This document shows positions 3,585-41,865 of a stretch of 64,000 bases of DNA, in pieces. Made by a program: the position numbers and the translations under genes. Below the pieces are notes generated by a model, which was not told the origin of the DNA, did no database searches, and saw only the letters and a program-made list of their open reading frames with translations. Source of the stretch: an uncultured Pseudanabaenaceae cyanobacterium (GTDB lineage: Bacteria; Cyanobacteriota; Cyanobacteriia; PCC-9006; JAAUQQ01); the NCBI GenBank assembly GCA_938021205.1, contig CALIGI010000082.1:1111-65110 (forward strand), given 5' to 3'. Each line of letters opens with the position of its first letter. The first letter of the stretch is position 1.

Positions 3585-4816
3585 TGGTCTATCAGCCCCC
3601 TTTGGGAGCGCGGGATTTATTGCCCGTCGAAGTTGCTCAGCAGCAGTGGATTGAGTTGCGTTTGCGCTCGGTCTTTGAGTGTTGGGGGTATCAGCGTATC
3701 GTGACTTCGACGTTGGAGCGGCTGGATACCCTCATGGCAGGTGGGGCGGTCAAGCGCCAGAGCCTGTTGCAAGTGCTTTCGAGTGATGATGGTGAGCTTG
3801 GGTTGCGTCCTGAGCTGACAGCTTCCATCGCTCGGGCTTCGGTGACGCGCTTAGCTCAGGCTCCAAGGCCTTTGCGTTTGTTCTATCTGGCTAATGTGTT
3901 TCGGCGTCAGCAGGAGCAAGAGAGCTACCAGGCTGGGGTGGAATTGCTCGGTGCTGGGTCGGTGATGGCCGATGCTGAGACGCTGTTATTGGTGAGTGAT
4001 TGTTTGGATGCGTTGGGTCTTGCTGCGTTGGATGGACCCAGCCCCTGCACAATTATTTTGGGTCAGGCTGCGTTAACGAAGTCATTATTAGTGCCTTTCC
4101 CCGAGGGTTTGCGAGGCAAGGTTTTGGGGGCGATCGCCCACCTAGACCGCCTTGCCTTAGAAACCCTAGACCTTAGCCCAGCTCTTAGGTCTAGAGCCCT
4201 GGCCTTGATGGATCTCCGAGGTCAGCCTGAGACAGTGCTGACAAAGCTCCAGAGCTTTGACTTGAATGATGCCCAGCAGGCGATCGCCCAGCGCTTATCC
4301 CAGCTAACGGAGTTGTTGGCGTCACGACTGGGTAATGCTGGGCCAGCCATGATCCTCGACCTCAGCCTGGTGCAGACGTTTGATTACTACACCGGCATTG
4401 TCTTTGAAGTGGCCTGTGGGTCTGGTGGCACCAATGATGTCGTGGCCCAGGGGGGACGCTATGACCAGCTTTTAGGTTTCTATGATCCCCAGCAGGAGAC
4501 CTCTCCCGGCATTGGTTTTAGTTTTGAAATTGAGCAGCTTCAGCAGGCGTTGCAATTTGCTGGGACATTGCCCCAGTCCACAGGGACTGTTGATTGGTTG
4601 GTTGTCCCTAGGACAGAGAGTGATCAGCAAGCTGCCCTAGATCAAGGCGAGAAGCTGCGCGGTCAGGATCAACGGGTGGAGTTGTATTTGGAAACAGGCT
4701 CGGATGCGGCGGCGGTGAAGGTCTATGCCCGGAGTAGAGCGATCGCTAAAATTGCTTGGATTACGGCTGGTCAAGTGCCTGAAGAAGAGGTCTTGACCGA
4801 GCCAGTTGATGGCTAG
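3584..4816 (+). CDS. hisZ: ATP phosphoribosyltransferase regulatory subunit (HisRS-like)
   Basis: N-terminus PPLGARDLLP, ELTASIAR, and a class-II aaRS-like core FDYYTGIVFE / GGRYDQLL. Overlaps the previous stop by 1 nt (TAATG). Confidence 0.8.
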   Translation: MVYQPPLGARDLLPVEVAQQQWIELRLRSVFECWGYQRIVTSTLERLDTLMAGGAVKRQSLLQVLSSDDGELGLRPELTASIARASVTRLAQAPRPLRLFYLANVFRRQQEQESYQAGVELLGAGSVMADAETLLLVSDCLDALGLAALDGPSPCTIILGQAALTKSLLVPFPEGLRGKVLGAIAHLDRLALETLDLSPALRSRALALMDLRGQPETVLTKLQSFDLNDAQQAIAQRLSQLTELLASRLGNAGPAMILDLSLVQTFDYYTGIVFEVACGSGGTNDVVAQGGRYDQLLGFYDPQQETSPGIGFSFEIEQLQQALQFAGTLPQSTGTVDWLVVPRTESDQQAALDQGEKLRGQDQRVELYLETGSDAAAVKVYARSRAIAKIAWITAGQVPEEEVLTEPVDG

Positions 4817-4900
4817 ATTTGGCAGCGTCCATCGGCCCCAGGCTGTAAGACTGCGATAGATTGATTAGCGAGAGGAAGACCTTCTAAGGGGGAAAGCACT

Positions 4901-5125
4901 TTGGCCTTTTCAATTGTGACGGATGTTTGTGAAGGAGTGGCAGATTGCGTGGATGCCTGCCCTGTAGCTTGTATTGACGAGGGGCCAGGTAAAAATAAGA
5001 AGGGAACTAATTGGTATTGGATCGATGCTGCGACCTGCATTGATTGTGGGATTTGTCTTCAGGTCTGTCCGGTAGAGGGAGCCATTTTGGCTGAGGAGCG
5101 GCCTGATTTGCAAAAGACACCTTAG
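4901..5125 (+). CDS. 4Fe-4S dicluster ferredoxin (TTG start)
   Basis: Two Cys clusters: CEGVADCVDACP and CIDCGICLQVCP. A GGGGGA Shine-Dalgarno-like sequence lies upstream of TTG 4901. Confidence 0.8.
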   Translation: MAFSIVTDVCEGVADCVDACPVACIDEGPGKNKKGTNWYWIDAATCIDCGICLQVCPVEGAILAEERPDLQKTP

Positions 5126-5135
5126 GTTGTCTTTT
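5112..5135 (+). terminator. probable intrinsic terminator of the ferredoxin gene
   Basis: AAAAGACACC / GGT(T)GTCTTTT stem with one bulge spanning the stop codon, followed by a T-run. Confidence 0.5.
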
Positions 5136-5473
5136 TTCGAGGGGGAGTTGTGAGCGTTTGGTTGATTTCAGCCAGGCGCTTTTTTATGAATGGTGGATTG
5201 GAGCTGGGGGAGTTGGCTGCGATGGGAGCACCATCATTGATGATCTTCCATCCATTGCTGAAGGCTAAAAACATTGCAGGGAGAGGATTTTGTTTCGACA
5301 CCGATTGTAATTAAACTGTCTGTCTTGGGAGGGAGGCTGGGCATCCTAGAGTTATCGCCAAAGCTGATCACTGCCTGCTTTTATGTGAGTGCATCTATTT
5401 CTAATGCTGCTTCCAGAACGCAAGTTTTGCGAGGAATCAGTTTGCTCAATTCAGCTACCTCACATCATTAGTC

Positions 5474-6499
5474 ATGGCACTTATTGCCCCTGTTCCCACT
5501 CCCATGCTGACGCCCCAGGTCTCGCTGGATTTTTCCATTGTGATTTGCACCTACAACGGTGCGGCACGCCTGCTGGATCTATTTGAAAGATTACGGCATT
5601 GCTGTGGGTTTCGACCCGGCGAGAATGCAGGCATAGAAGCGTATCAACCCATCCGTTGGGAAATCCTGGTGGTGGACAATAACAGCAGCGATGAAACAGC
5701 AGCGGTAGTGCGCCAAGCCCAGCAAGATTGGCCTGAGGATTATCCCCTTCGTTATTGTTTTGAGGCCCAGCAGGGCGCGTCCTATGCCAGGGAGCTTGGG
5801 GTCCATGAGGCCCAGGCAGGGCTCATTGGGTTTTTGGATGACGATAATCTGCCTGCGCCTGACTGGGTCTACGAGGCCTATCGCTTTGCCCAGGAGTATC
5901 CCAATGCTGGGGCCTTTGGCAGCCAAATTCATGGCGATTATGAGGTGGAGCCTGCAGATGAGCTGAAACCGCTACTGCCCTTTCTGGCCATTGTGGAACG
6001 GGGAGCAGAGCCGCTGCGCTATGACTCCATGAAGCGAATGTTACCCCCTTCAGCGGGTCTGGTGGTGCGGCGGGAGGCTTGGTTGGAGAGCATGCCGGAG
6101 ACTTGCATGTTGCGAGGCCGTAATCAGGACAGCATGTTGACCGGGGAAGATACAGAAGCCCTGACCTATTTGCTGCGCTCCGGCTGGGAGATCTGGTACA
6201 ACCCAGCGATGCATTTGTGGCATCGAATCCCCCATTGGCGCTTGGAACGCAGCTATCTGATTCCCTTTTTTCAGGGCATTGGGTTAAGCCGCTATGTGAC
6301 GCGGATGCAGGGGCTTAAACCCTGGCTGCGGCCTTTGGCTCTGCCGGTCTACATCTTGAATGATTTGCGTAAGGCGGTGGTTTTGATTCTGCGTCATGGT
6401 TTCCGCCTACGCGAGAACTTGACGGCTCAGTGTGAGTTGACGTTGATTCTATATTCGTTGCGCAGTCCCTTTTATTTTTGGCGCATGGGCCGAACTTGA
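5474..6499 (+). CDS. family-2 glycosyltransferase (HpsE-like)
   Basis: FSIVICTYNGA, VVDNNSSDET and GFLDDDN (DXD). A close paralogue of the next gene. Confidence 0.8.
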   Translation: MALIAPVPTPMLTPQVSLDFSIVICTYNGAARLLDLFERLRHCCGFRPGENAGIEAYQPIRWEILVVDNNSSDETAAVVRQAQQDWPEDYPLRYCFEAQQGASYARELGVHEAQAGLIGFLDDDNLPAPDWVYEAYRFAQEYPNAGAFGSQIHGDYEVEPADELKPLLPFLAIVERGAEPLRYDSMKRMLPPSAGLVVRREAWLESMPETCMLRGRNQDSMLTGEDTEALTYLLRSGWEIWYNPAMHLWHRIPHWRLERSYLIPFFQGIGLSRYVTRMQGLKPWLRPLALPVYILNDLRKAVVLILRHGFRLRENLTAQCELTLILYSLRSPFYFWRMGRT

Positions 6500-6589
6500 A
6501 TGGTTAGACCGGGCTGAATCTCTAGTCAGCTTTGGGTGGAACTGTCGGGTGACTGCTTGCGGAAAGTTTGTTTTGGACAGAAAACGATT

Positions 6590-33787: not shown

Positions 33788-33806
33788 ATCACAAGATCTT
33801 CACATT
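33788..33806 (+). promoter_or_regulatory. TCACA-N6-TCACA direct-repeat box A, with a -10-like TAAGGT at 33814-33819
   Basis: ATCACAAGATCTTCACATT. There are 9 nt between the second TCACA and TAAGGT. The box lies 50 nt upstream of ATG 33856. Confidence 0.6.
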
Positions 33807-35271: not shown

Positions 35272-35290
35272 AATGTGAAGATCTTGTGAA
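35272..35290 (-). promoter_or_regulatory. TCACA-N6-TCACA direct-repeat box C (minus orientation)
   Basis: The minus strand reads TTCACAAGATCTTCACATT. Possible -10 hexamers are TTCAAT (35263-35258) or TAGGTA (35258-35253), so the spacing differs from boxes A, B and D. Confidence 0.5.
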
Positions 35291-35505
35291 TAGGCCAATC
35301 TAAATGCAGACCATCGAAATTTCATGGGACCGGAGAGACTGGTACCAAACTCGCTAGGGGCTGGGGATGACCCGGCTTTATTGAGCCAAGGTAGAGTCAC
35401 GGCAATGCGGTTACATTCTTAAAACTACATTTAACTTCATGTTTCGTAGTGGGTTTGTGAGATTTCTAGACGGATACTTAAAACAAGCTAAATAATTTGG
35501 CTCCT

Positions 35506-37506
35506 ATGAAGATTCTGGTAGTCGAGGATGATGAAGCCTTTTCTGCTTTAGTTGAAGCTGCTCTAGAAGAACAGCATTACCAAGTGGATCGGGTGACTGA
35601 TGCCCAATCTGGGTGGGATTGGTTGGATGCCTATGAGTATGATTTAATTCTGCTGGATTTGATCTTGCCCGGTAAGGCAGATGGACTTTGCTTTTGTCGA
35701 GAGTTGCGGGCCAAGGGCGATCTTACGCCGGTTTTATTGATGACGGCGAATGAAGCCCAGTCCATTAAGGTTCAAGGATTGGATGCGGGGGCTGATGATT
35801 ATTTAGTTAAGCCTTTTGATTGGGCTGAGTTGTTGGCGCGAGTGCGTGCCCTATTGCGTCGGGGCCAGGATTCCCTGTCTCCCCTATTGGTCTGGGGGAC
35901 TTTAGAGTTGGACCCCAGCAGTTGCGAGGTGGTGTGCCAAGTTCAGCCGAATCTGTCCGGGGCAACTTCAGTGGGAACGGGGCCAAAAGTGCTGGCTCTC
36001 ACGGCTAAGGAATATAGCCTGTTGGAATTGTTGCTGCGTAATCCCCATCGCATTTTCAATGCGGGAGCATTATTGGATCGCCTGTGGGATTCCGAGGAGG
36101 CTCCATCGGAAAATGCAGTGCGAGCCCATATCAAAGGACTCCGCCGCAAGCTTAAGCAGGCGGGAGTTGGAGACCCTGTGGAGACGGTGTATGGCCTGGG
36201 CTATCGTTTGCGGGGGGCTCCATCCCAGGCGGAGGAGCCTTTTGCTGGGGCAGAGCAATCTGGTTCAACGGATCTTGCGGCGGAGTCTCCAGCGGGACAG
36301 CCTACTCCGGAGCCTTTTCAGCAGCAGCTTGAGCGGGTATGGCAGCGAGCCAGAAAAACCTATTTAGAGCAAGTGACGGCCTTGGATGGCATGGTGGAGC
36401 GTTTGCAGCAGCAGTCTACGACATCCTCCCTGTTCTTGACTCCAGAGGATTGGCAGCAAATGCGCCGTCAGGCCCATAGTCTTAAGGGGGGGCTGGGTAG
36501 CTTTGGGCTTCATGGGGCGGCGGCGGTGGCTGCCCAGCTCCAGGACTTAGTTGAGCCTGCCCTGGATGAGGGTAGCAAAAGTAGCGATGACTCAGGTGCT
36601 GTACCTCCTGCAGGTGGAGTACTACAGCCTCTCTTACTCCAGTTGCGTCAGGCGCTGGAAGCTGCTGTCACCTTGCAGCTAGAGCCTTTGGCACCGGATC
36701 CTCCAAGCCCCCCAGAGCCTTTAGGCCAATGTTGGTTGGCCACGACTGATGCTGCCCTAGTAGAGCGCTTGACGGCGATCGCGGTCAGCTCAGGTATTAC
36801 CCTAGATTTCCTATCATTGGAGGATTCTTTGGAGCGTTGCTTGCTCCCTCGGGAAGATGGCCTCTCCGCAGGGGGGGGAGCTCCACCCCAGGTGGTGATC
36901 TGGGATTTGGCGACAGTCCAGAGTGTTGCTTTAGAGCGTTTAGGAGGATTGCCTTGGATTGCCTTGATTGAAGGAGATTCTTTGCCCCAGCGAGTCAAGG
37001 CAGTCCAAGGCGGTAGCAGTTGCTGTGTGGATCGCCTTGCTGGCAGTGAGGCAATCATGGAAGCAGTCGCGGCTCAGTTGCAGCGGCTACGCCAAAAACA
37101 GTTGGGGGCGGCTAAGCTGCTGGCAGTGGATGATGATGCTCCGCTATTGAATCTGTTGGAAGGGATGTTGCAGCCCTGGGGGGTGGAGGTGACGCTGCTG
37201 AGCCAGCCTGAGCAGTTTTGGCAGGTGCTCCAGAAAACCCAGCCGGACCTGTTGCTGTTGGATGTGGAGATGCCTGGGGTCAATGGTTTAGACCTCTGCC
37301 GAGTGGTCCGTCAGGACCCTCAATGGTGCCGATTACCGATCTTGTTCCTCTCTTCTCGGCGGGATGGCCCCTTGCTGGAGCAGCTTTTTGCAGCGGGGGC
37401 CAGTGATTTCTTGAGCAAGCCAGTGACGGGGGAGATGCTGGTGGCTAGGGTCAGGAATTGTTTGGAGCAGTCTGCATTGGGTCAACCTCAGGTGCTGCTG
37501 TCATGA
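35506..37506 (+). CDS. multidomain response regulator: REC, OmpR-type winged helix, Hpt, receiver-like domain, REC
   Basis: REC1: KILVVEDDE...LILLDLILPG...LLMTA...YLVKPF. wHTH: LTAKEYSLLELLLRNPHRIF...VRAHIKGLRRKL...VYGLGYRL. Hpt: QAHSLKGGLGSFG. C-terminal REC: LLAVDDD...LLLLDVEMPG...FLSS...FLSKPV. Confidence 0.85.
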   Translation: MKILVVEDDEAFSALVEAALEEQHYQVDRVTDAQSGWDWLDAYEYDLILLDLILPGKADGLCFCRELRAKGDLTPVLLMTANEAQSIKVQGLDAGADDYLVKPFDWAELLARVRALLRRGQDSLSPLLVWGTLELDPSSCEVVCQVQPNLSGATSVGTGPKVLALTAKEYSLLELLLRNPHRIFNAGALLDRLWDSEEAPSENAVRAHIKGLRRKLKQAGVGDPVETVYGLGYRLRGAPSQAEEPFAGAEQSGSTDLAAESPAGQPTPEPFQQQLERVWQRARKTYLEQVTALDGMVERLQQQSTTSSLFLTPEDWQQMRRQAHSLKGGLGSFGLHGAAAVAAQLQDLVEPALDEGSKSSDDSGAVPPAGGVLQPLLLQLRQALEAAVTLQLEPLAPDPPSPPEPLGQCWLATTDAALVERLTAIAVSSGITLDFLSLEDSLERCLLPREDGLSAGGGAPPQVVIWDLATVQSVALERLGGLPWIALIEGDSLPQRVKAVQGGSSCCVDRLAGSEAIMEAVAAQLQRLRQKQLGAAKLLAVDDDAPLLNLLEGMLQPWGVEVTLLSQPEQFWQVLQKTQPDLLLLDVEMPGVNGLDLCRVVRQDPQWCRLPILFLSSRRDGPLLEQLFAAGASDFLSKPVTGEMLVARVRNCLEQSALGQPQVLLS

Positions 37507-37739
37507 TGATTTTAGGAGGAGGGTCGATGTTGAAGACGGGTGATGAATTCAATGGCAGTTTTGGGAGTCCCAGGAAAAAGGGCTTTTGAGATGGGTCGGG
37601 AGAGCAGTGGATGGTACGAGCCTGTGGGCTCACCTTGTGAGACCTGCCGTTGCCATTACTGCTGATTTTTGGGCTCTGGTTTTGATGATTGATGCGCTAT
37701 TTTCGCTTTGGCTTTGGCCCGTCCCCGTAAAATCCTAGG

Positions 37740-40466
37740 GTGTCTATGGCTCTCAATGAACCCAATCAAATATTTGCGAATATCGCCTTAAAGATCCGCC
37801 AGTCCTTGAATTTAGAGGACATTTTGGAGACGGCGGTGGCGGAGGTGCGCCAGTTGTTGGGCTGCGATCGCGTGCTGATCTATCGTTTCTATCCCGACTG
37901 GAGTGGTGTCATTGCGGTGGAATCGGTGGCGAGCGCTGAGCTTTCGATTTTGAGCCGTGTCATAAAGGACCCTTGTTTTGAGCAGAGTTGGTTGAAGCCC
38001 TATCGGGAGGGACGGCTCCAGGCCACCGCAGATGTTCAGCAGGCGGGCCTTCGAGATTGTTATGTGGAATTCCTAGGGGAGTTTCAGGTGCGGGCCAATC
38101 TGGTGGTGCCGATTCTCTTGGGCGATTGCGCTGAACCCCTGTGGGGGCTGTTGATCGCCCACCATTGTCAGAAGCCTCGTGTTTGGTCTGAGGAAGATGT
38201 TCAGTTACTGAAGCAATTGTCGGACCAGATGGCGATCGCCATTCAGCAGGCTTTGTTGCTCCAGCGCACCCAGGCTGAGCTGGTCGAACGTCGCCTGGCT
38301 GAGGCCAATTTGGAGGAGAGTGAGGCGCGCTTTCGTCGCCTGGCGGAACAGGCCCAGGATGTGATCTATCGCTATGTGTGGCAGCCTGAAGCCCAGGTGG
38401 AATACATTAACCCAGCCATTACGACCTTGACGGGCTACACCCCTGGAGAATTTTATGCCTCGCCGGAGTTGCTGTTTTCTCTGGTGCATCGCGAAGACTT
38501 GAAGCAGTTTCGTCAGCAACTTTCGCCTCAGCTCCAGAGTGCCGATGATGATGTGGAGCCCCAGCCCCGGTTGATCGTGTGGCGCTGCCTCCATAAGGCA
38601 GGCCACGTGTTGTGGGTTGAGCAGCGTTGTACGCCCCTGCGGAATGAAGCGGGAGAATTGGTGGCGGTGGAAGGGATTGTGCGGGATATTCGCGATCGCA
38701 TGGTGGATTTGACTCCTTCGCCCGCTGCCTCAGTGACTGAGGCCGGCTTGTCTCAGCTTGGGTTTGGTGCGGACGCTAGAAAGCGGCTGTGGCAGAGTCT
38801 GCGGGAGCCATTTTCTAGCCTAGCCCTGTCTCGCTATGCCAGTGCCAGCGTTATGGTGGGCATGATTTTTCTGGCGGAGGGGCTGCGTCAGGGGGGGCTA
38901 TCGGCTGCTAGCCAAATGCTGGTGCTGTTTGTCGGGCTGGTGCTAGCAGCCAGTGGAGGAGGATTGCAGGCAGGGGTGATGGCCACCCTCGCCCTCTGGC
39001 TATATCTCTTGGTTACGCTGGTGTTGGATGGAGCCACGGGGCGGACGGATTGGCCGCTATACCTGGCGATTTATGGGCTTGCCACGGCCATCGTGGCAGT
39101 GGTGGTGGGGCAGACCAAGGATCGCAGCCTTTCAGCCGATCAGGCCTTGAACCAGGTGAATGAAACTCTTGAACTGCGGGTGCAGGAGCGGACTGCAATC
39201 TTAGATCGCACCAATAATCAACTCCGAGAGGAAATTGAGGAGCGGCGGCGAGCCCAGGCGGCTCACCAGGCCGCAGAAATAGAATTGCAGCAGCTCAACC
39301 AGGTTTTGGAGAGTCGGGTCTTAGAGCGTACAGCGACCCTGGCAGCCTCCGAGGGACGGTGGCGCAATTTCATTGATACCGTGCGCTTGTTGGTTGTGGA
39401 TATCGGTGTGGATGGCCGAGTGAACTATGTCAATCCCCATTTCCTGACCCTGACAGGCTATGAAGCTGAGGCTGTGATTGGCTGCAATTGGTTTGAGACC
39501 TTTGTGCCCCGCCACCAGCTCTCCCAAACTCGGCAGATTTTTCAGGAGTTCCTGGATGAGGGCTTCCATTCCTATTTCCCCACGGTTATTTTGACGGACT
39601 CGGGCGAGGAGATCGTCGTGGCCTGGAATAACACGCTGCTGCACGATGCTGCTGGTCAGGTCCAGGGCAGCCTCAGCATTGGTGAAGATATCACTGAACG
39701 CTATGCTGTCTCCCGGATGAAGGATGAGTTTATTTCCGTGGTGAGTCATGAGTTGCGTACACCACTCACCTCCATTCATGGTGCTCTGGAACTGTTGGAT
39801 TCTGAGGTGGTGCCGCTGGAGTCGGAGCGGGGCCGTCAGGTATTGGCGATCGCCGCCGAAAATTCCCAGAGGCTGGTGCGCCTCGTCAATGACATCCTTC
39901 AGCTAGAGCGCTTGGAGTCGGGCAAGATCAACCTGAATCAGAATGTCCTGTGCAGTACTGAGGTCACGGCCCGAGCCCAGGAGCTGATGCAAATGCTCCT
40001 AGAGCGCTCTCAAATTCAGTTGGTTGTGGAGGATCCTGGTCTAGAGTTGTGGGCTGATGGCGATCGCATCATTCAGGTGCTGACTAATTTACTAGATAAC
40101 GCCATCAAGTTCTCGGAAGCGGATGGCCAAGTGAGCCTTACCGTGGAAGCGGCAGCTTCCCCCACGGTTCCGGGGCAAATGATGGTGTTGTTTAAGGTGA
40201 GTGACCAAGGTCGGGGGATTCCCCTAGATAAGCTGGGCAGTATCTTTGAGCGCTTTCACCAAGTGGATGCCTCGGATTCCCGTCGGCGTGGCGGCACGGG
40301 ATTGGGATTGGCCATTTGTCGCAGCATTGTCCAGCAACATGGCGGGCAGATTTGGGTGAACAGTACTTTGGGCCAAGGGAGTCACTTTTATTTTGTTTTG
40401 CCGTCGCAGCCTGAGGGAAAAGGCAAAATGCTGGAGGGCCAGAGATCCCCACCAAGCTCTACCTAG
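37740..40466 (+). CDS. sensor histidine kinase (GAF, PAS, 4-TM block, coiled coil, PAS, HisKA, HATPase)
   Basis: H-box VSHELRTPLTSI, N-box LTNLLDNAIKFS, G1 DQGRGIP and G2 GTGLGLAICRSIV. A hydrophobic block lies mid-protein. No C-terminal receiver. An alternative ATG is at 37746. Confidence 0.9.
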   Translation: MSMALNEPNQIFANIALKIRQSLNLEDILETAVAEVRQLLGCDRVLIYRFYPDWSGVIAVESVASAELSILSRVIKDPCFEQSWLKPYREGRLQATADVQQAGLRDCYVEFLGEFQVRANLVVPILLGDCAEPLWGLLIAHHCQKPRVWSEEDVQLLKQLSDQMAIAIQQALLLQRTQAELVERRLAEANLEESEARFRRLAEQAQDVIYRYVWQPEAQVEYINPAITTLTGYTPGEFYASPELLFSLVHREDLKQFRQQLSPQLQSADDDVEPQPRLIVWRCLHKAGHVLWVEQRCTPLRNEAGELVAVEGIVRDIRDRMVDLTPSPAASVTEAGLSQLGFGADARKRLWQSLREPFSSLALSRYASASVMVGMIFLAEGLRQGGLSAASQMLVLFVGLVLAASGGGLQAGVMATLALWLYLLVTLVLDGATGRTDWPLYLAIYGLATAIVAVVVGQTKDRSLSADQALNQVNETLELRVQERTAILDRTNNQLREEIEERRRAQAAHQAAEIELQQLNQVLESRVLERTATLAASEGRWRNFIDTVRLLVVDIGVDGRVNYVNPHFLTLTGYEAEAVIGCNWFETFVPRHQLSQTRQIFQEFLDEGFHSYFPTVILTDSGEEIVVAWNNTLLHDAAGQVQGSLSIGEDITERYAVSRMKDEFISVVSHELRTPLTSIHGALELLDSEVVPLESERGRQVLAIAAENSQRLVRLVNDILQLERLESGKINLNQNVLCSTEVTARAQELMQMLLERSQIQLVVEDPGLELWADGDRIIQVLTNLLDNAIKFSEADGQVSLTVEAAASPTVPGQMMVLFKVSDQGRGIPLDKLGSIFERFHQVDASDSRRRGGTGLGLAICRSIVQQHGGQIWVNSTLGQGSHFYFVLPSQPEGKGKMLEGQRSPPSST

Positions 40467-40687
40467 GCCCAGAAATGCTCCAAGAACAGCCTAAAAACTG
40501 CCCAGAAACCAGCAGAGCGTGGGGATTAGGACTGTTGGACGATTGGCCAGGGGAGCATTCCAGGTATAACGTGAGTTCGATAATTCTTGGGCTGTCCTCA
40601 CCTGGGTTGAGCTCAACAGGAGAGCCCCTAGTCCTTGGGGAAAAAGGAACGTCAAAATCTCTAAAAGCCTTGTGATTTTGCGTTCGG

Positions 40688-40725
40688 CTCCCTTCTCTCG
40701 TTGGAGAAAGGCTTAGGGGATGAGG
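40688..40725. repeat. G/C-tract stem-loop dispersed repeat
   Basis: CTCCCTTCTCtcgttgGAGAAAGG followed by CTTAGGGGATGAGG. Confidence 0.5.
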
Positions 40726-40830
40726 TTGTTTCTGTGTCTGTCGAGTCGAACTCAGGTCGGAATAGAAATCCCATGCTTAGAGACTGCTCTGAGCATGGGA
40801 ATGGGGTCAATCAATAGAGGTTAGAGGATA

Positions 40831-41211
40831 ATGACAAAACGAATCTTGATTATTGATGACGATGATGGCATTCGCGACATCGTTGCCATTTCGCTGGAGG
40901 CTTTAGCTGGATGGGAAGTCCTCAAGGCAGATTCTGGGCCAGCGGGGGTGGAACTGGCTCGTTCGGCTCAGCCCGACGGGATCTTGCTGGATGTGATGAT
41001 GCCAGGCCAGGATGGTATGGAGACCTTGAAGCAGCTCCAGGCTCAGCCTGAGACCTCTGCCATTGCGACGATTTTTCTCACGGCGAAGGCTCGCTCCAGT
41101 GAGCAAAAGCGATTATTAGATTTGGGCTGTGTGGGGTTAATTACGAAGCCCTTTGAAGTGCAAAAGCTAGTTCCGCAGATTTGTGAATTGTTGGGATGGC
41201 TCCTGCCCTAG
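40831..41211 (+). CDS. single-domain (CheY-like) response regulator
   Basis: ILIIDDDD, ILLDVMMPG, FLTAK and ITKPF. Confidence 0.9.
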   Translation: MTKRILIIDDDDGIRDIVAISLEALAGWEVLKADSGPAGVELARSAQPDGILLDVMMPGQDGMETLKQLQAQPETSAIATIFLTAKARSSEQKRLLDLGCVGLITKPFEVQKLVPQICELLGWLLP

Positions 41212-41293: not shown

Positions 41294-41312
41294 ATCACAA
41301 AATCCTCACAAT
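41294..41312 (+). promoter_or_regulatory. TCACA-N6-TCACA direct-repeat box D, with a -10-like TAGGCT at 41320-41325
   Basis: ATCACAAAATCCTCACAAT with a 9-nt spacer to TAGGCT. It lies about 90 nt upstream of ATG 41401. Confidence 0.55.
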
Positions 41313-41400
41313 CTTTTTCTAGGCTGAGGATTGTTGTGTTTCTTAGGGCAAATTTTTGGTAGAGGGCAAGTCACAAGCTCCGTTTCGCTTTGAGCGAGAA

Positions 41401-41793
41401 ATGACGATCTCGATATTGGAGAAGCAAGATGTAGCTGCACTGCAGGCGCTGAAGCAATTTTTGCTAAATATGCCCGGACCGAAGGCGATTGAGACTGTTT
41501 TGGTTCAGGCTGTTTGCTACTGCGCGGAGGAACGTCCAGAAGCTTTTAACTGGGTCGTTGCCCATGCTGCTCAGCTAGAGCCAGAGCTGCGACTGGAGCA
41601 GTGGGCTTACAACTTCGTGGTGAACGCCTTGGCGCAGAAGGGCTGTGTTGTGGGGCGAGAGTTTCGTTTTGAGCAACAGTCGGACTCCAGTCAGTTGCAA
41701 TTACATCTAGAGGCTATGGTCCGACAGATTCTCTGGGAGAACTGCTCCCAGGGGGAATGGTTGCTGCTGAATCGTTTGTTTGGGATTGAGTAA
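41401..41793 (+). CDS. uncharacterised 130-aa protein
   Basis: ORF with normal composition preceded by box D. No motif recognised. The ORF-track start at 41356 is a TTG. Confidence 0.55.
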   Translation: MTISILEKQDVAALQALKQFLLNMPGPKAIETVLVQAVCYCAEERPEAFNWVVAHAAQLEPELRLEQWAYNFVVNALAQKGCVVGREFRFEQQSDSSQLQLHLEAMVRQILWENCSQGEWLLLNRLFGIE

Positions 41794-41846: not shown

Positions 41847-41865
41847 ATCACAGGATCTTCACATT
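41847..41865 (+). promoter_or_regulatory. TCACA-N6-TCACA direct-repeat box B, with a -10-like TATAGT at 41873-41878
   Basis: ATCACAGGATCTTCACATT with a 9-nt spacer to TATAGT. It lies 57 nt upstream of ATG 41922. Confidence 0.6.

Follow-up and report, generated by a model that had tools for sequence, protein, structure and literature searches.

A three-gene cassette of the Rca/Rfp type, consisting of a complex response regulator, a sensor histidine kinase as well as a stand-alone CheY-like receiver, was identified at positions 35506 to 41211 of a 64,000-nucleotide stretch (hereafter the window) of contig CALIGI010000082.1, from an uncultured Pseudanabaenaceae cyanobacterium (assembly GCA_938021205.1). 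It is a divergent cassette of this type, with a domain layout that is common and already described, and it probably constitutes a photosensory phosphorelay in which the phosphoryl group would pass from the kinase His to the CheY Asp, on to H324 and then D51 of the regulator, and so control binding to DNA. The same three genes were kept, in the same order, in two close relatives (L001 and L002; 74-79% identity), both Pseudanabaenaceae metagenome-assembled genomes (MAGs). An earlier, sequence-only reading of the window had proposed the three open reading frames (ORFs) and their domains, and both an ORF check and Pfam bore these out:

35506 to 37506, forward strand: RcaC-type complex response regulator gene, 666 amino acids (aa), from its ORF, Pfam matches (REC twice, Trans_reg_C and Hpt) and a full-length alignment to an RcaC orthologue.
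37740 to 40466, forward strand: non-hybrid sensor histidine kinase, 908 aa, with Pfam GAF, two PAS, HisKA and HATPase_c matches and with orthologues at the same position in L001 and L002.
40831 to 41211, forward strand: stand-alone CheY-like receiver resembling RcaF and RfpC, 126 aa, from a Pfam REC match and similarity to RcaF, conserved in L001 and L002.

As the start of the regulator, the ATG at 35506 was preferred over a TTG at 35497 because its homologues likewise begin MKIL.

The sequence-only reading had regarded the architecture of the regulator as unusual and possibly undescribed, and this did not hold. Searched over its full length, the regulator matched more than 100 proteins (counted as 90%-identity clusters) with the same Pfam set, at ~99% query coverage and ~40% identity; the named full-length matches were all cyanobacterial, and some had a C-terminal GGDEF domain added. 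An exhaustive search (E<=1e-30) with a family-specific query spanning residues 262-666 (Hpt, middle domain and C-terminal receiver) recovered 886 clusters at 50% identity. Most of these were 600-850 aa long with the match starting near residue 250, so the Hpt-to-C-terminus part follows a receiver (REC) and winged helix-turn-helix (wHTH) module. When 301 genomes from the phylum were surveyed, open frames of 600-850 aa with strong matches proved frequent in the oxygenic class, whereas in the other classes matches were absent or receiver-only. A scan of genome contigs with a single protein query found two true relatives, L001 and L002, along with four other loci that were receiver-only and belonged to other phyla. 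We also fetched and annotated the neighbourhoods of 20 family members in other genomes; at 13 of these 20 loci a kinase, a ~125-aa CheY and the regulator stood side by side, in either order, and most of the trio kinases carried bilin-type GAF domains. The cluster count, the recurrence of the trio and the full-length match to RcaC orthologues described below, together with the literature on RcaC and RfpB, place the window regulator within an architecture that is common and has already been characterized.

Three loci (L029, L033 and L028) were taken as rcaE-rcaF-rcaC loci because the GAF domain of the adjoining kinase closely matched the RcaE GAF structure (Protein Data Bank [PDB] entry 7ckv; 312, 319 and 268 bits, respectively, over ~162 residues). 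All three also carried a small CheY, and their regulators (643-656 aa) matched the Pfam set of the window regulator (two REC stretches, Trans_reg_C and Hpt), the Hpt domains of RcaC orthologues scoring 32-36 bits. The L029 regulator (651 aa) aligned to the window regulator over all domains at 36% identity (E 3e-125). When the window genome was probed with the RcaE GAF, RcaF and RcaC of L029, the three genes of the cassette came out on top, the kinase at 42.5%, and this 4.2-Mb, 79%-complete genome held no further member of the family. The stand-alone CheY, a single Response_reg domain in Pfam (85 bits), in line with the CheY-like protein of the sequence-only reading, shared 48-50% identity with L029's RcaF orthologue, the next best match in the window genome being at 35%. 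In a maximum-likelihood tree of 50 family regulators, sampled without an RfpB representative, the window regulator and five close relatives formed a clade (100%) with a stem length of 1.51, and the RcaC clade (L027, L028, L029, L031 and L033; 100%) excluded them, the backbone of the tree being unresolved. In the 50%-identity library the window clade was a single cluster, beyond which the next match fell to 32-37% identity. Judged from these comparisons, the window regulator is a divergent member of the family and not an RcaC orthologue.

Two variations on the family layout were seen in the same survey. Family members of ~780-840 aa (P0007, P0011, P0015, P0021 and others; loci L019, L020, L024-L026, L032 and L034) carried a GGDEF domain after the C-terminal receiver, which would join transcriptional and c-di-GMP output in one polypeptide, and some of these adjoined hybrid kinases. 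At L022 (8290-14724) and L037 (6231-11917), an RcaC-type regulator was accompanied by a DUF4118-PAS-GAF-PAS kinase and two consecutive small CheY genes, in the order regulator-kinase-CheY-CheY. These two loci had been considered as candidates for far-red light photoacclimation (FaRLiP) and were rejected, as their flanks held housekeeping genes and their kinases were of the DUF4118-PAS-GAF-PAS kind, with no knotless phytochromes.

The window regulator is built, in order, of a receiver, an OmpR-type wHTH, an Hpt domain, a degenerate receiver and a second canonical receiver:

35512 to 35847, forward strand: N-terminal receiver, residues 3-114, with E7 D8, D51, T80 and K102 (Pfam; residues invariant or nearly so in the family alignment).
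35884 to 36213, forward strand: OmpR-type winged-helix DNA-binding domain, residues ~127-236 (Pfam Trans_reg_C; strands and helices over 128-235 in the AlphaFold2 model).
35941 to 35988, forward strand: clade-specific 16-aa loop of the wHTH beta-sheet, residues 146-161 (found only in P0001-P0006; low pLDDT and no secondary structure).
36316 to 36663, forward strand: Hpt four-helix bundle, residues 271-386, with the codon of the phospho-His H324 at 36475-36477 (Pfam, alignment and AlphaFold2).
36724 to 37092, forward strand: degenerate middle receiver or pseudo-receiver, residues 407-529, with D467 kept (hhalign and AlphaFold2; no Pfam match alone).
37114 to 37476, forward strand: canonical C-terminal receiver, residues 537-657, with D543 D544, D586, S616 and K638 (second Pfam REC stretch; family alignment).

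Pfam matched Response_reg at residues 3-114 and in a second stretch (178.6 bits summed); its Trans_reg_C match covered 163-235 (74.8 bits), and its Hpt match, over 304-386, scored 40.3 bits against a gathering cut-off of 24.6. In a family alignment of 31 members, which share the order REC, wHTH, Hpt, REC and REC, D51, H324, G328 (the H+4 position) and D586 were invariant or nearly so, G331 of the Hpt was also invariant, and D51 stood at the Asp position conserved in the family and in the RcaC orthologue. The AlphaFold2 model (mean pLDDT 77) contained a four-helix Hpt and three receiver folds, with H324 predicted to sit on the second helix of the Hpt. The Hpt assignment of the sequence-only reading was thereby supported by the Pfam score above cut-off, by the invariant H324 and G328 and by the modelled four-helix bundle. 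Alignment and model likewise showed that the 16-residue insertion it had reported in the wHTH is real: VQPNLSGATSVGTGPK occupies residues 146-161 between beta-strands of the N-terminal sheet, is restricted to the six closest relatives, among which it differs in sequence and length, and was modelled as a low-confidence unstructured loop.

The route that phosphate would take through these domains is suggested by the two characterized systems. Phosphorylation of RcaC by RcaE takes place 'via phosphotransfer protein RcaF', and that of RfpB by RfpA through RfpC (PMC5737509); the title of Kehoe & Grossman 1997, as cited, refers to a 'novel four-step phosphorelay'. The rfp operon has the order rfpB-rfpA-rfpC, is auto-regulated and requires all three genes (PMC4658448). 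For regulators of the RcaC/RfpB type, 'three CheY-like domains' have been described; RfpB, whose partners are RfpA and RfpC, has receivers flanking the DNA-binding domain, and RfpB of heterocyst-forming strains is still functional without the C-terminal receiver (PMC4390838). Because of this published genetics, we favour a path from kinase to CheY to Hpt to D51. The His-Asp-His-Asp relay put forward by the sequence-only reading was reasonable in that it matches the published Rca/Rfp models, while the idea that its wiring is unusual fell away. Phosphate-sink activity, which had been suggested for the stand-alone receiver, is less favoured than a role as obligatory intermediate because all three rfp genes are required and RcaF acts between RcaE and RcaC.

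An intramolecular relay, from the kinase to D586, H324 and D51 within one polypeptide or dimer, with the CheY serving as a sink or insulator or having a separate output, seems unlikely. No block of the family alignment was more conserved than the C-terminal receiver, whose catalytic residues are all intact, a GGDEF domain directly follows this receiver in many relatives, like an ordinary REC-output pair, and a recent report that RcaF binds other partners, SigB1 and Hrr1, suggests further roles for small receivers. However, published models and genetics put RcaF and RfpC between kinase and regulator, in 13 of the 20 loci the CheY accompanies the regulator, and its identity to RcaF is 50%, as for a dedicated partner, and RfpB of heterocyst-forming strains works without a C-terminal receiver. 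We consider it more improbable still that the kinase phosphorylates D51 directly, in an ordinary two-component shortcut in which the Hpt, pseudo-receiver and C-terminal receiver would tune stability, abundance or cross-talk. Although the N-terminal 236 aa score like a whole OmpR-class regulator (RppA 256.5 bits and PhoB 226 bits; NCBIfam), the conservation of H324 and its H+4 Gly, invariant at ~40% identity, argues for a working phosphotransfer site, and such a shortcut would make a conserved, dedicated CheY partner unnecessary. The RppA equivalog itself (NF041734, a 229-residue model with a cut-off of 250 bits) covered only residues 1-236 of 666, and the label was dropped because the other 430 residues place the regulator in the RcaC-type family.

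The kinase that would feed the favoured relay through the CheY combines a photoreceptor-like GAF domain with a membrane block in mid-protein:

37809 to 38243, forward strand: cyanobacteriochrome-type GAF, residues 24-168, with D77-P-C79-F and with C107 followed by Y108 (PDB matches; motif kept in L001 and L002).
38820 to 39119, forward strand: four hydrophobic, transmembrane-like helices, residues ~361-460 (Kyte-Doolittle windows).
39357 to 40409, forward strand: second PAS, HisKA and HATPase_c, residues 540-890 (Pfam).

Pfam placed the GAF at residues 24-168, PAS domains at 222-314 and 540-655, HisKA at 660-728 and HATPase_c at 773-890, and found no receiver in the 908-aa protein. Kyte-Doolittle windows above 1.5 were centred at 370, 393-406, 416-425 and 446-451, and to this membrane block Pfam gave a weak DUF4118 match only (E 0.56). 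Pfam and hydropathy thus agreed with the receiver-less order of GAF, PAS, four transmembrane helices, PAS, HisKA and HATPase that had been read from the sequence. The best PDB matches of the GAF domain were cyanobacteriochrome (CBCR) GAFs (6e-46 to 1e-32) and included the dual-sensor kinase 6oap (6e-46), 8k9o, TePixJ (3vv4/4fof) and RcaE (7ckv; 9e-33). C79 is the second Cys of a DXCF motif and the canonical C107 follows at +28, as in TePixJ; the DPCF motif and the canonical Cys were conserved in both L001 and L002. The domain is therefore likely a two-Cys, DXCF-type CBCR-like GAF providing a light-colour input. The residue after the canonical Cys was Tyr108 in the window kinase and Tyr in L002, and the usual His (C-H) in L001, so that close orthologues differ naturally between His and Tyr at a key position of the bilin pocket (window 38055-38063).

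This Tyr leaves some room for a non-light input, in which the GAF would have lost bilin binding with the change from His to Tyr beside the Cys and the kinase would sense otherwise via its PAS domains or membrane block. Two PAS domains and four membrane helices could carry other signals, and the trios at L019, L023 and L032 use kinases without a bilin-type GAF. We nevertheless regard this as doubtful, though less so than the alternative phosphate routes above, because the domain matches bilin-binding CBCR GAFs of known structure at 6e-46 to 1e-32, keeps both DXCF-type Cys at the TePixJ spacing of +28 and has the standard C-H in the L001 orthologue.

A candidate target of the regulator was found in a 16-mer direct repeat, TCACA-N6-TCACA, with half-sites spaced by 11 bp, which is typical of OmpR/PhoB-class regulators. 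Exact copies numbered four in the window, all of them around the cassette:

35274 to 35289, reverse strand: candidate operator, direct repeat TCACAAGATCTTCACA, lying upstream of the regulator gene at a distance of 217 bp; may mediate autoregulation.
33789 to 33804, forward strand: second copy, an exact match left of the cassette and upstream of small genes there.
41295 to 41310, forward strand: third copy, 46 bp upstream of a 145-aa ORF that follows CheY; counterparts conserved at L002 13507 and L001 8162.
41848 to 41863, forward strand: fourth copy, where the next pair of small genes begins; counterparts conserved at L002 14058 and L001 8737.

Genome-wide (4.2 Mb) there were nine exact matches against ~7 expected, and of these nine only the four flanking the cassette had in common the spacer RRATCY. 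The upstream box (~205-217 bp before the regulator, on the opposite strand) had the same sequence, strand and relative position in L001 and L002, where the downstream boxes were conserved as well. These observations support autoregulation and a local regulon of small uncharacterized genes, and the repeat is likely the operator of the cassette. The small genes near the boxes encode pairs of zinc-ribbon and helical proteins and the 145-aa protein, all uncharacterized. A protein of 145-150 aa was conserved directly after the CheY gene and behind a box (window 41356-41793, L002 13567-14004, L001 8221-8673), and is likely a member of the cassette regulon. Outside the cassette region, the only box-like site in the same genome was TCACAAAACCCTCACA (C199:7284), one spacer base off the box at 41295. 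Upstream of the cassette in L002 (3322-7250) we found three further exact boxes (3322, 6794 and 7235) and a gene for an extra 835-aa histidine kinase (4005-6512), and the boxed neighbourhood in that genome is therefore larger.

We postulate that the membrane-anchored kinase, probably with a bilin on its two-Cys GAF, would autophosphorylate its HisKA His depending on light colour. By homology and published genetics, the phosphoryl group would move to the stand-alone CheY-like protein, the RcaF/RfpC equivalent, and then presumably to His324 of the regulator Hpt. From the Hpt it would reach Asp51 of the N-terminal receiver, and the adjacent winged helix would be switched to bind its putative TCACA-N6-TCACA target. 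Binding to the repeats that flank the cassette would bring about autoregulation and control of the neighbouring small genes. Asp586 of the C-terminal receiver may be a second acceptor that modulates flow or the abundance of the regulator, and the middle receiver may be a non-phosphorylatable scaffold.

Several considerations count against this scheme. The cassette is known here from sequence alone, from a 79%-complete, MAG-like assembly, and its regulator belongs to a long-branched clade outside the RcaC clade, the function of which may have shifted. Tyr108 stands where nearly all bilin-binding relatives carry His beside the canonical Cys, and the boxes are tied to the regulator through proximity and conservation only. 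The RcaC residues in question are D51, H316 and D576 (a literature search for these residue names gave nothing relevant). Li and Kehoe reportedly found in 2005 that the phenotypes of the RcaC Hpt His and C-terminal Asp are weaker than that of D51, so that even for RcaC an obligatory route through the Hpt is not established. For the Rfp system, Zhao et al. describe the precise function of RfpC as unknown (PMC4658448).

The middle segment of the regulator (residues ~407-529) gave no Pfam match by itself even at E<=10. Profile-profile comparison and modelling did support its reading as a receiver: it aligned to the canonical third receiver of most family members in the 31-member alignment, matched the canonical middle receiver of the family with 93% probability in hhalign (E 3e-7, 107 columns) and was modelled by AlphaFold2 as a (beta-alpha)5 fold over residues 407-529. 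In this domain TT stands in place of the acidic pair DD, Ile in place of the Thr and Arg in place of the Lys, and a 16-aa loop has been added. The sequence-only reading was accurate as to the acidic pair and the Lys; the loss of the acceptor Asp that it implied was not found, since D467 is retained at that position. The decayed domain occurred across the window clade of six sequences, and most family members have a canonical middle receiver (IVDDD...LLDL...FTA...QKP) and three Pfam REC stretches. RcaC orthologues have two such stretches only, and in that of L029 (8430-10385) the middle receiver is also degenerate, with IVSSD, an Arg in place of the acceptor Asp and the Lys replaced. The tree backbone was too poorly resolved to tell whether the decay in RcaC and in the window clade arose independently.

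The spacer between the kinase and CheY genes (40467-40830) was 365 bp long in the window and ~38 bp in L002. Its core (~40591-40757) was a ~170-bp dispersed repeat, diverged copies of which (more than 50, at ~70-87% identity) are spread over many contigs of the genome, and it looks like an insertion of miniature inverted-repeat transposable element (MITE) type within the operon. A hairpin was also present at ~40771-40800. Promoter and terminator scans covering the surroundings of the regulator start and of the spacer between kinase and CheY returned nothing above shuffled expectation.

Compared with RcaE-RcaF-RcaC of Fremyella diplosiphon, which governs type III chromatic acclimation, the window cassette shares the REC-wHTH-Hpt-degenerate REC-REC regulator, a receiver-less kinase with a cyanobacteriochrome GAF, a single-domain receiver of ~125 aa that is ~50% identical, and a repeat-type operator (in RcaC the L-box, through which phycocyanin and phycoerythrin genes are controlled). 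It differs in gene order (regulator-kinase-CheY versus kinase-CheY-regulator), in having a two-Cys DXCF-type GAF rather than the green/red type of RcaE and a kinase with a mid-protein membrane block, and in a middle receiver that keeps its acceptor Asp, whereas that of RcaC does not. The extra wHTH loop, the separate long-branched clade and boxes that adjoin small unknown genes rather than phycobiliprotein genes also set it apart. With the RfpA-RfpC-RfpB system of FaRLiP it shares the order regulator-kinase-CheY, in an operon that is auto-regulated there, receivers that flank the winged helix (by published descriptions only) and a CheY-like protein proposed to ferry phosphate from kinase to regulator. 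However, RfpA is a knotless red/far-red phytochrome encoded in a photosystem gene cluster, whereas the window kinase is of the DXCF-type CBCR kind and no photosynthesis genes lie beside the cassette. The same Pfam composition, at ~40-45% identity over 99% of the length, is also found in uncharacterized proteins annotated as 'DNA-binding response OmpR family regulator / HPt domain-containing' (~620-680 aa, or ~780-840 aa with GGDEF), often with kinase and CheY genes alongside. The middle receiver is canonical in most such proteins and can presumably be phosphorylated, in contrast to the decayed one of the window clade.

A tentative interpretation, which we hold with less confidence than the relay itself, is that the cassette is a rewired, Pseudanabaenaceae-specific offshoot of the RcaC family. 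Its membrane-anchored two-Cys (blue/green-range) CBCR kinase, with an unusual Cys-Tyr at the chromophore site, would drive a four-step relay onto a TCACA-N6-TCACA local regulon of small genes, and not onto phycobilisome remodelling, with the decayed middle receiver and the wHTH loop as possible lineage adaptations. Besides these two features, minor points of interest are the local regulon with its boxes and, in the kinase, the Cys-Tyr GAF and the membrane block in mid-protein. The layout that looked exotic is a standard design of cyanobacterial signalling, known genetically since the 1990s from RcaC and later from far-red acclimation through RfpB. The family is large, with hundreds of 50%-identity clusters, and functions are known for two of its members only. 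Since the window clade joins such a regulator to a photoreceptor of another colour class and to a seemingly self-contained set of boxed small genes, the cassette offers a compact test case for what the Hpt and extra receivers contribute and for the non-phycobilisome outputs that relays of this kind may have.

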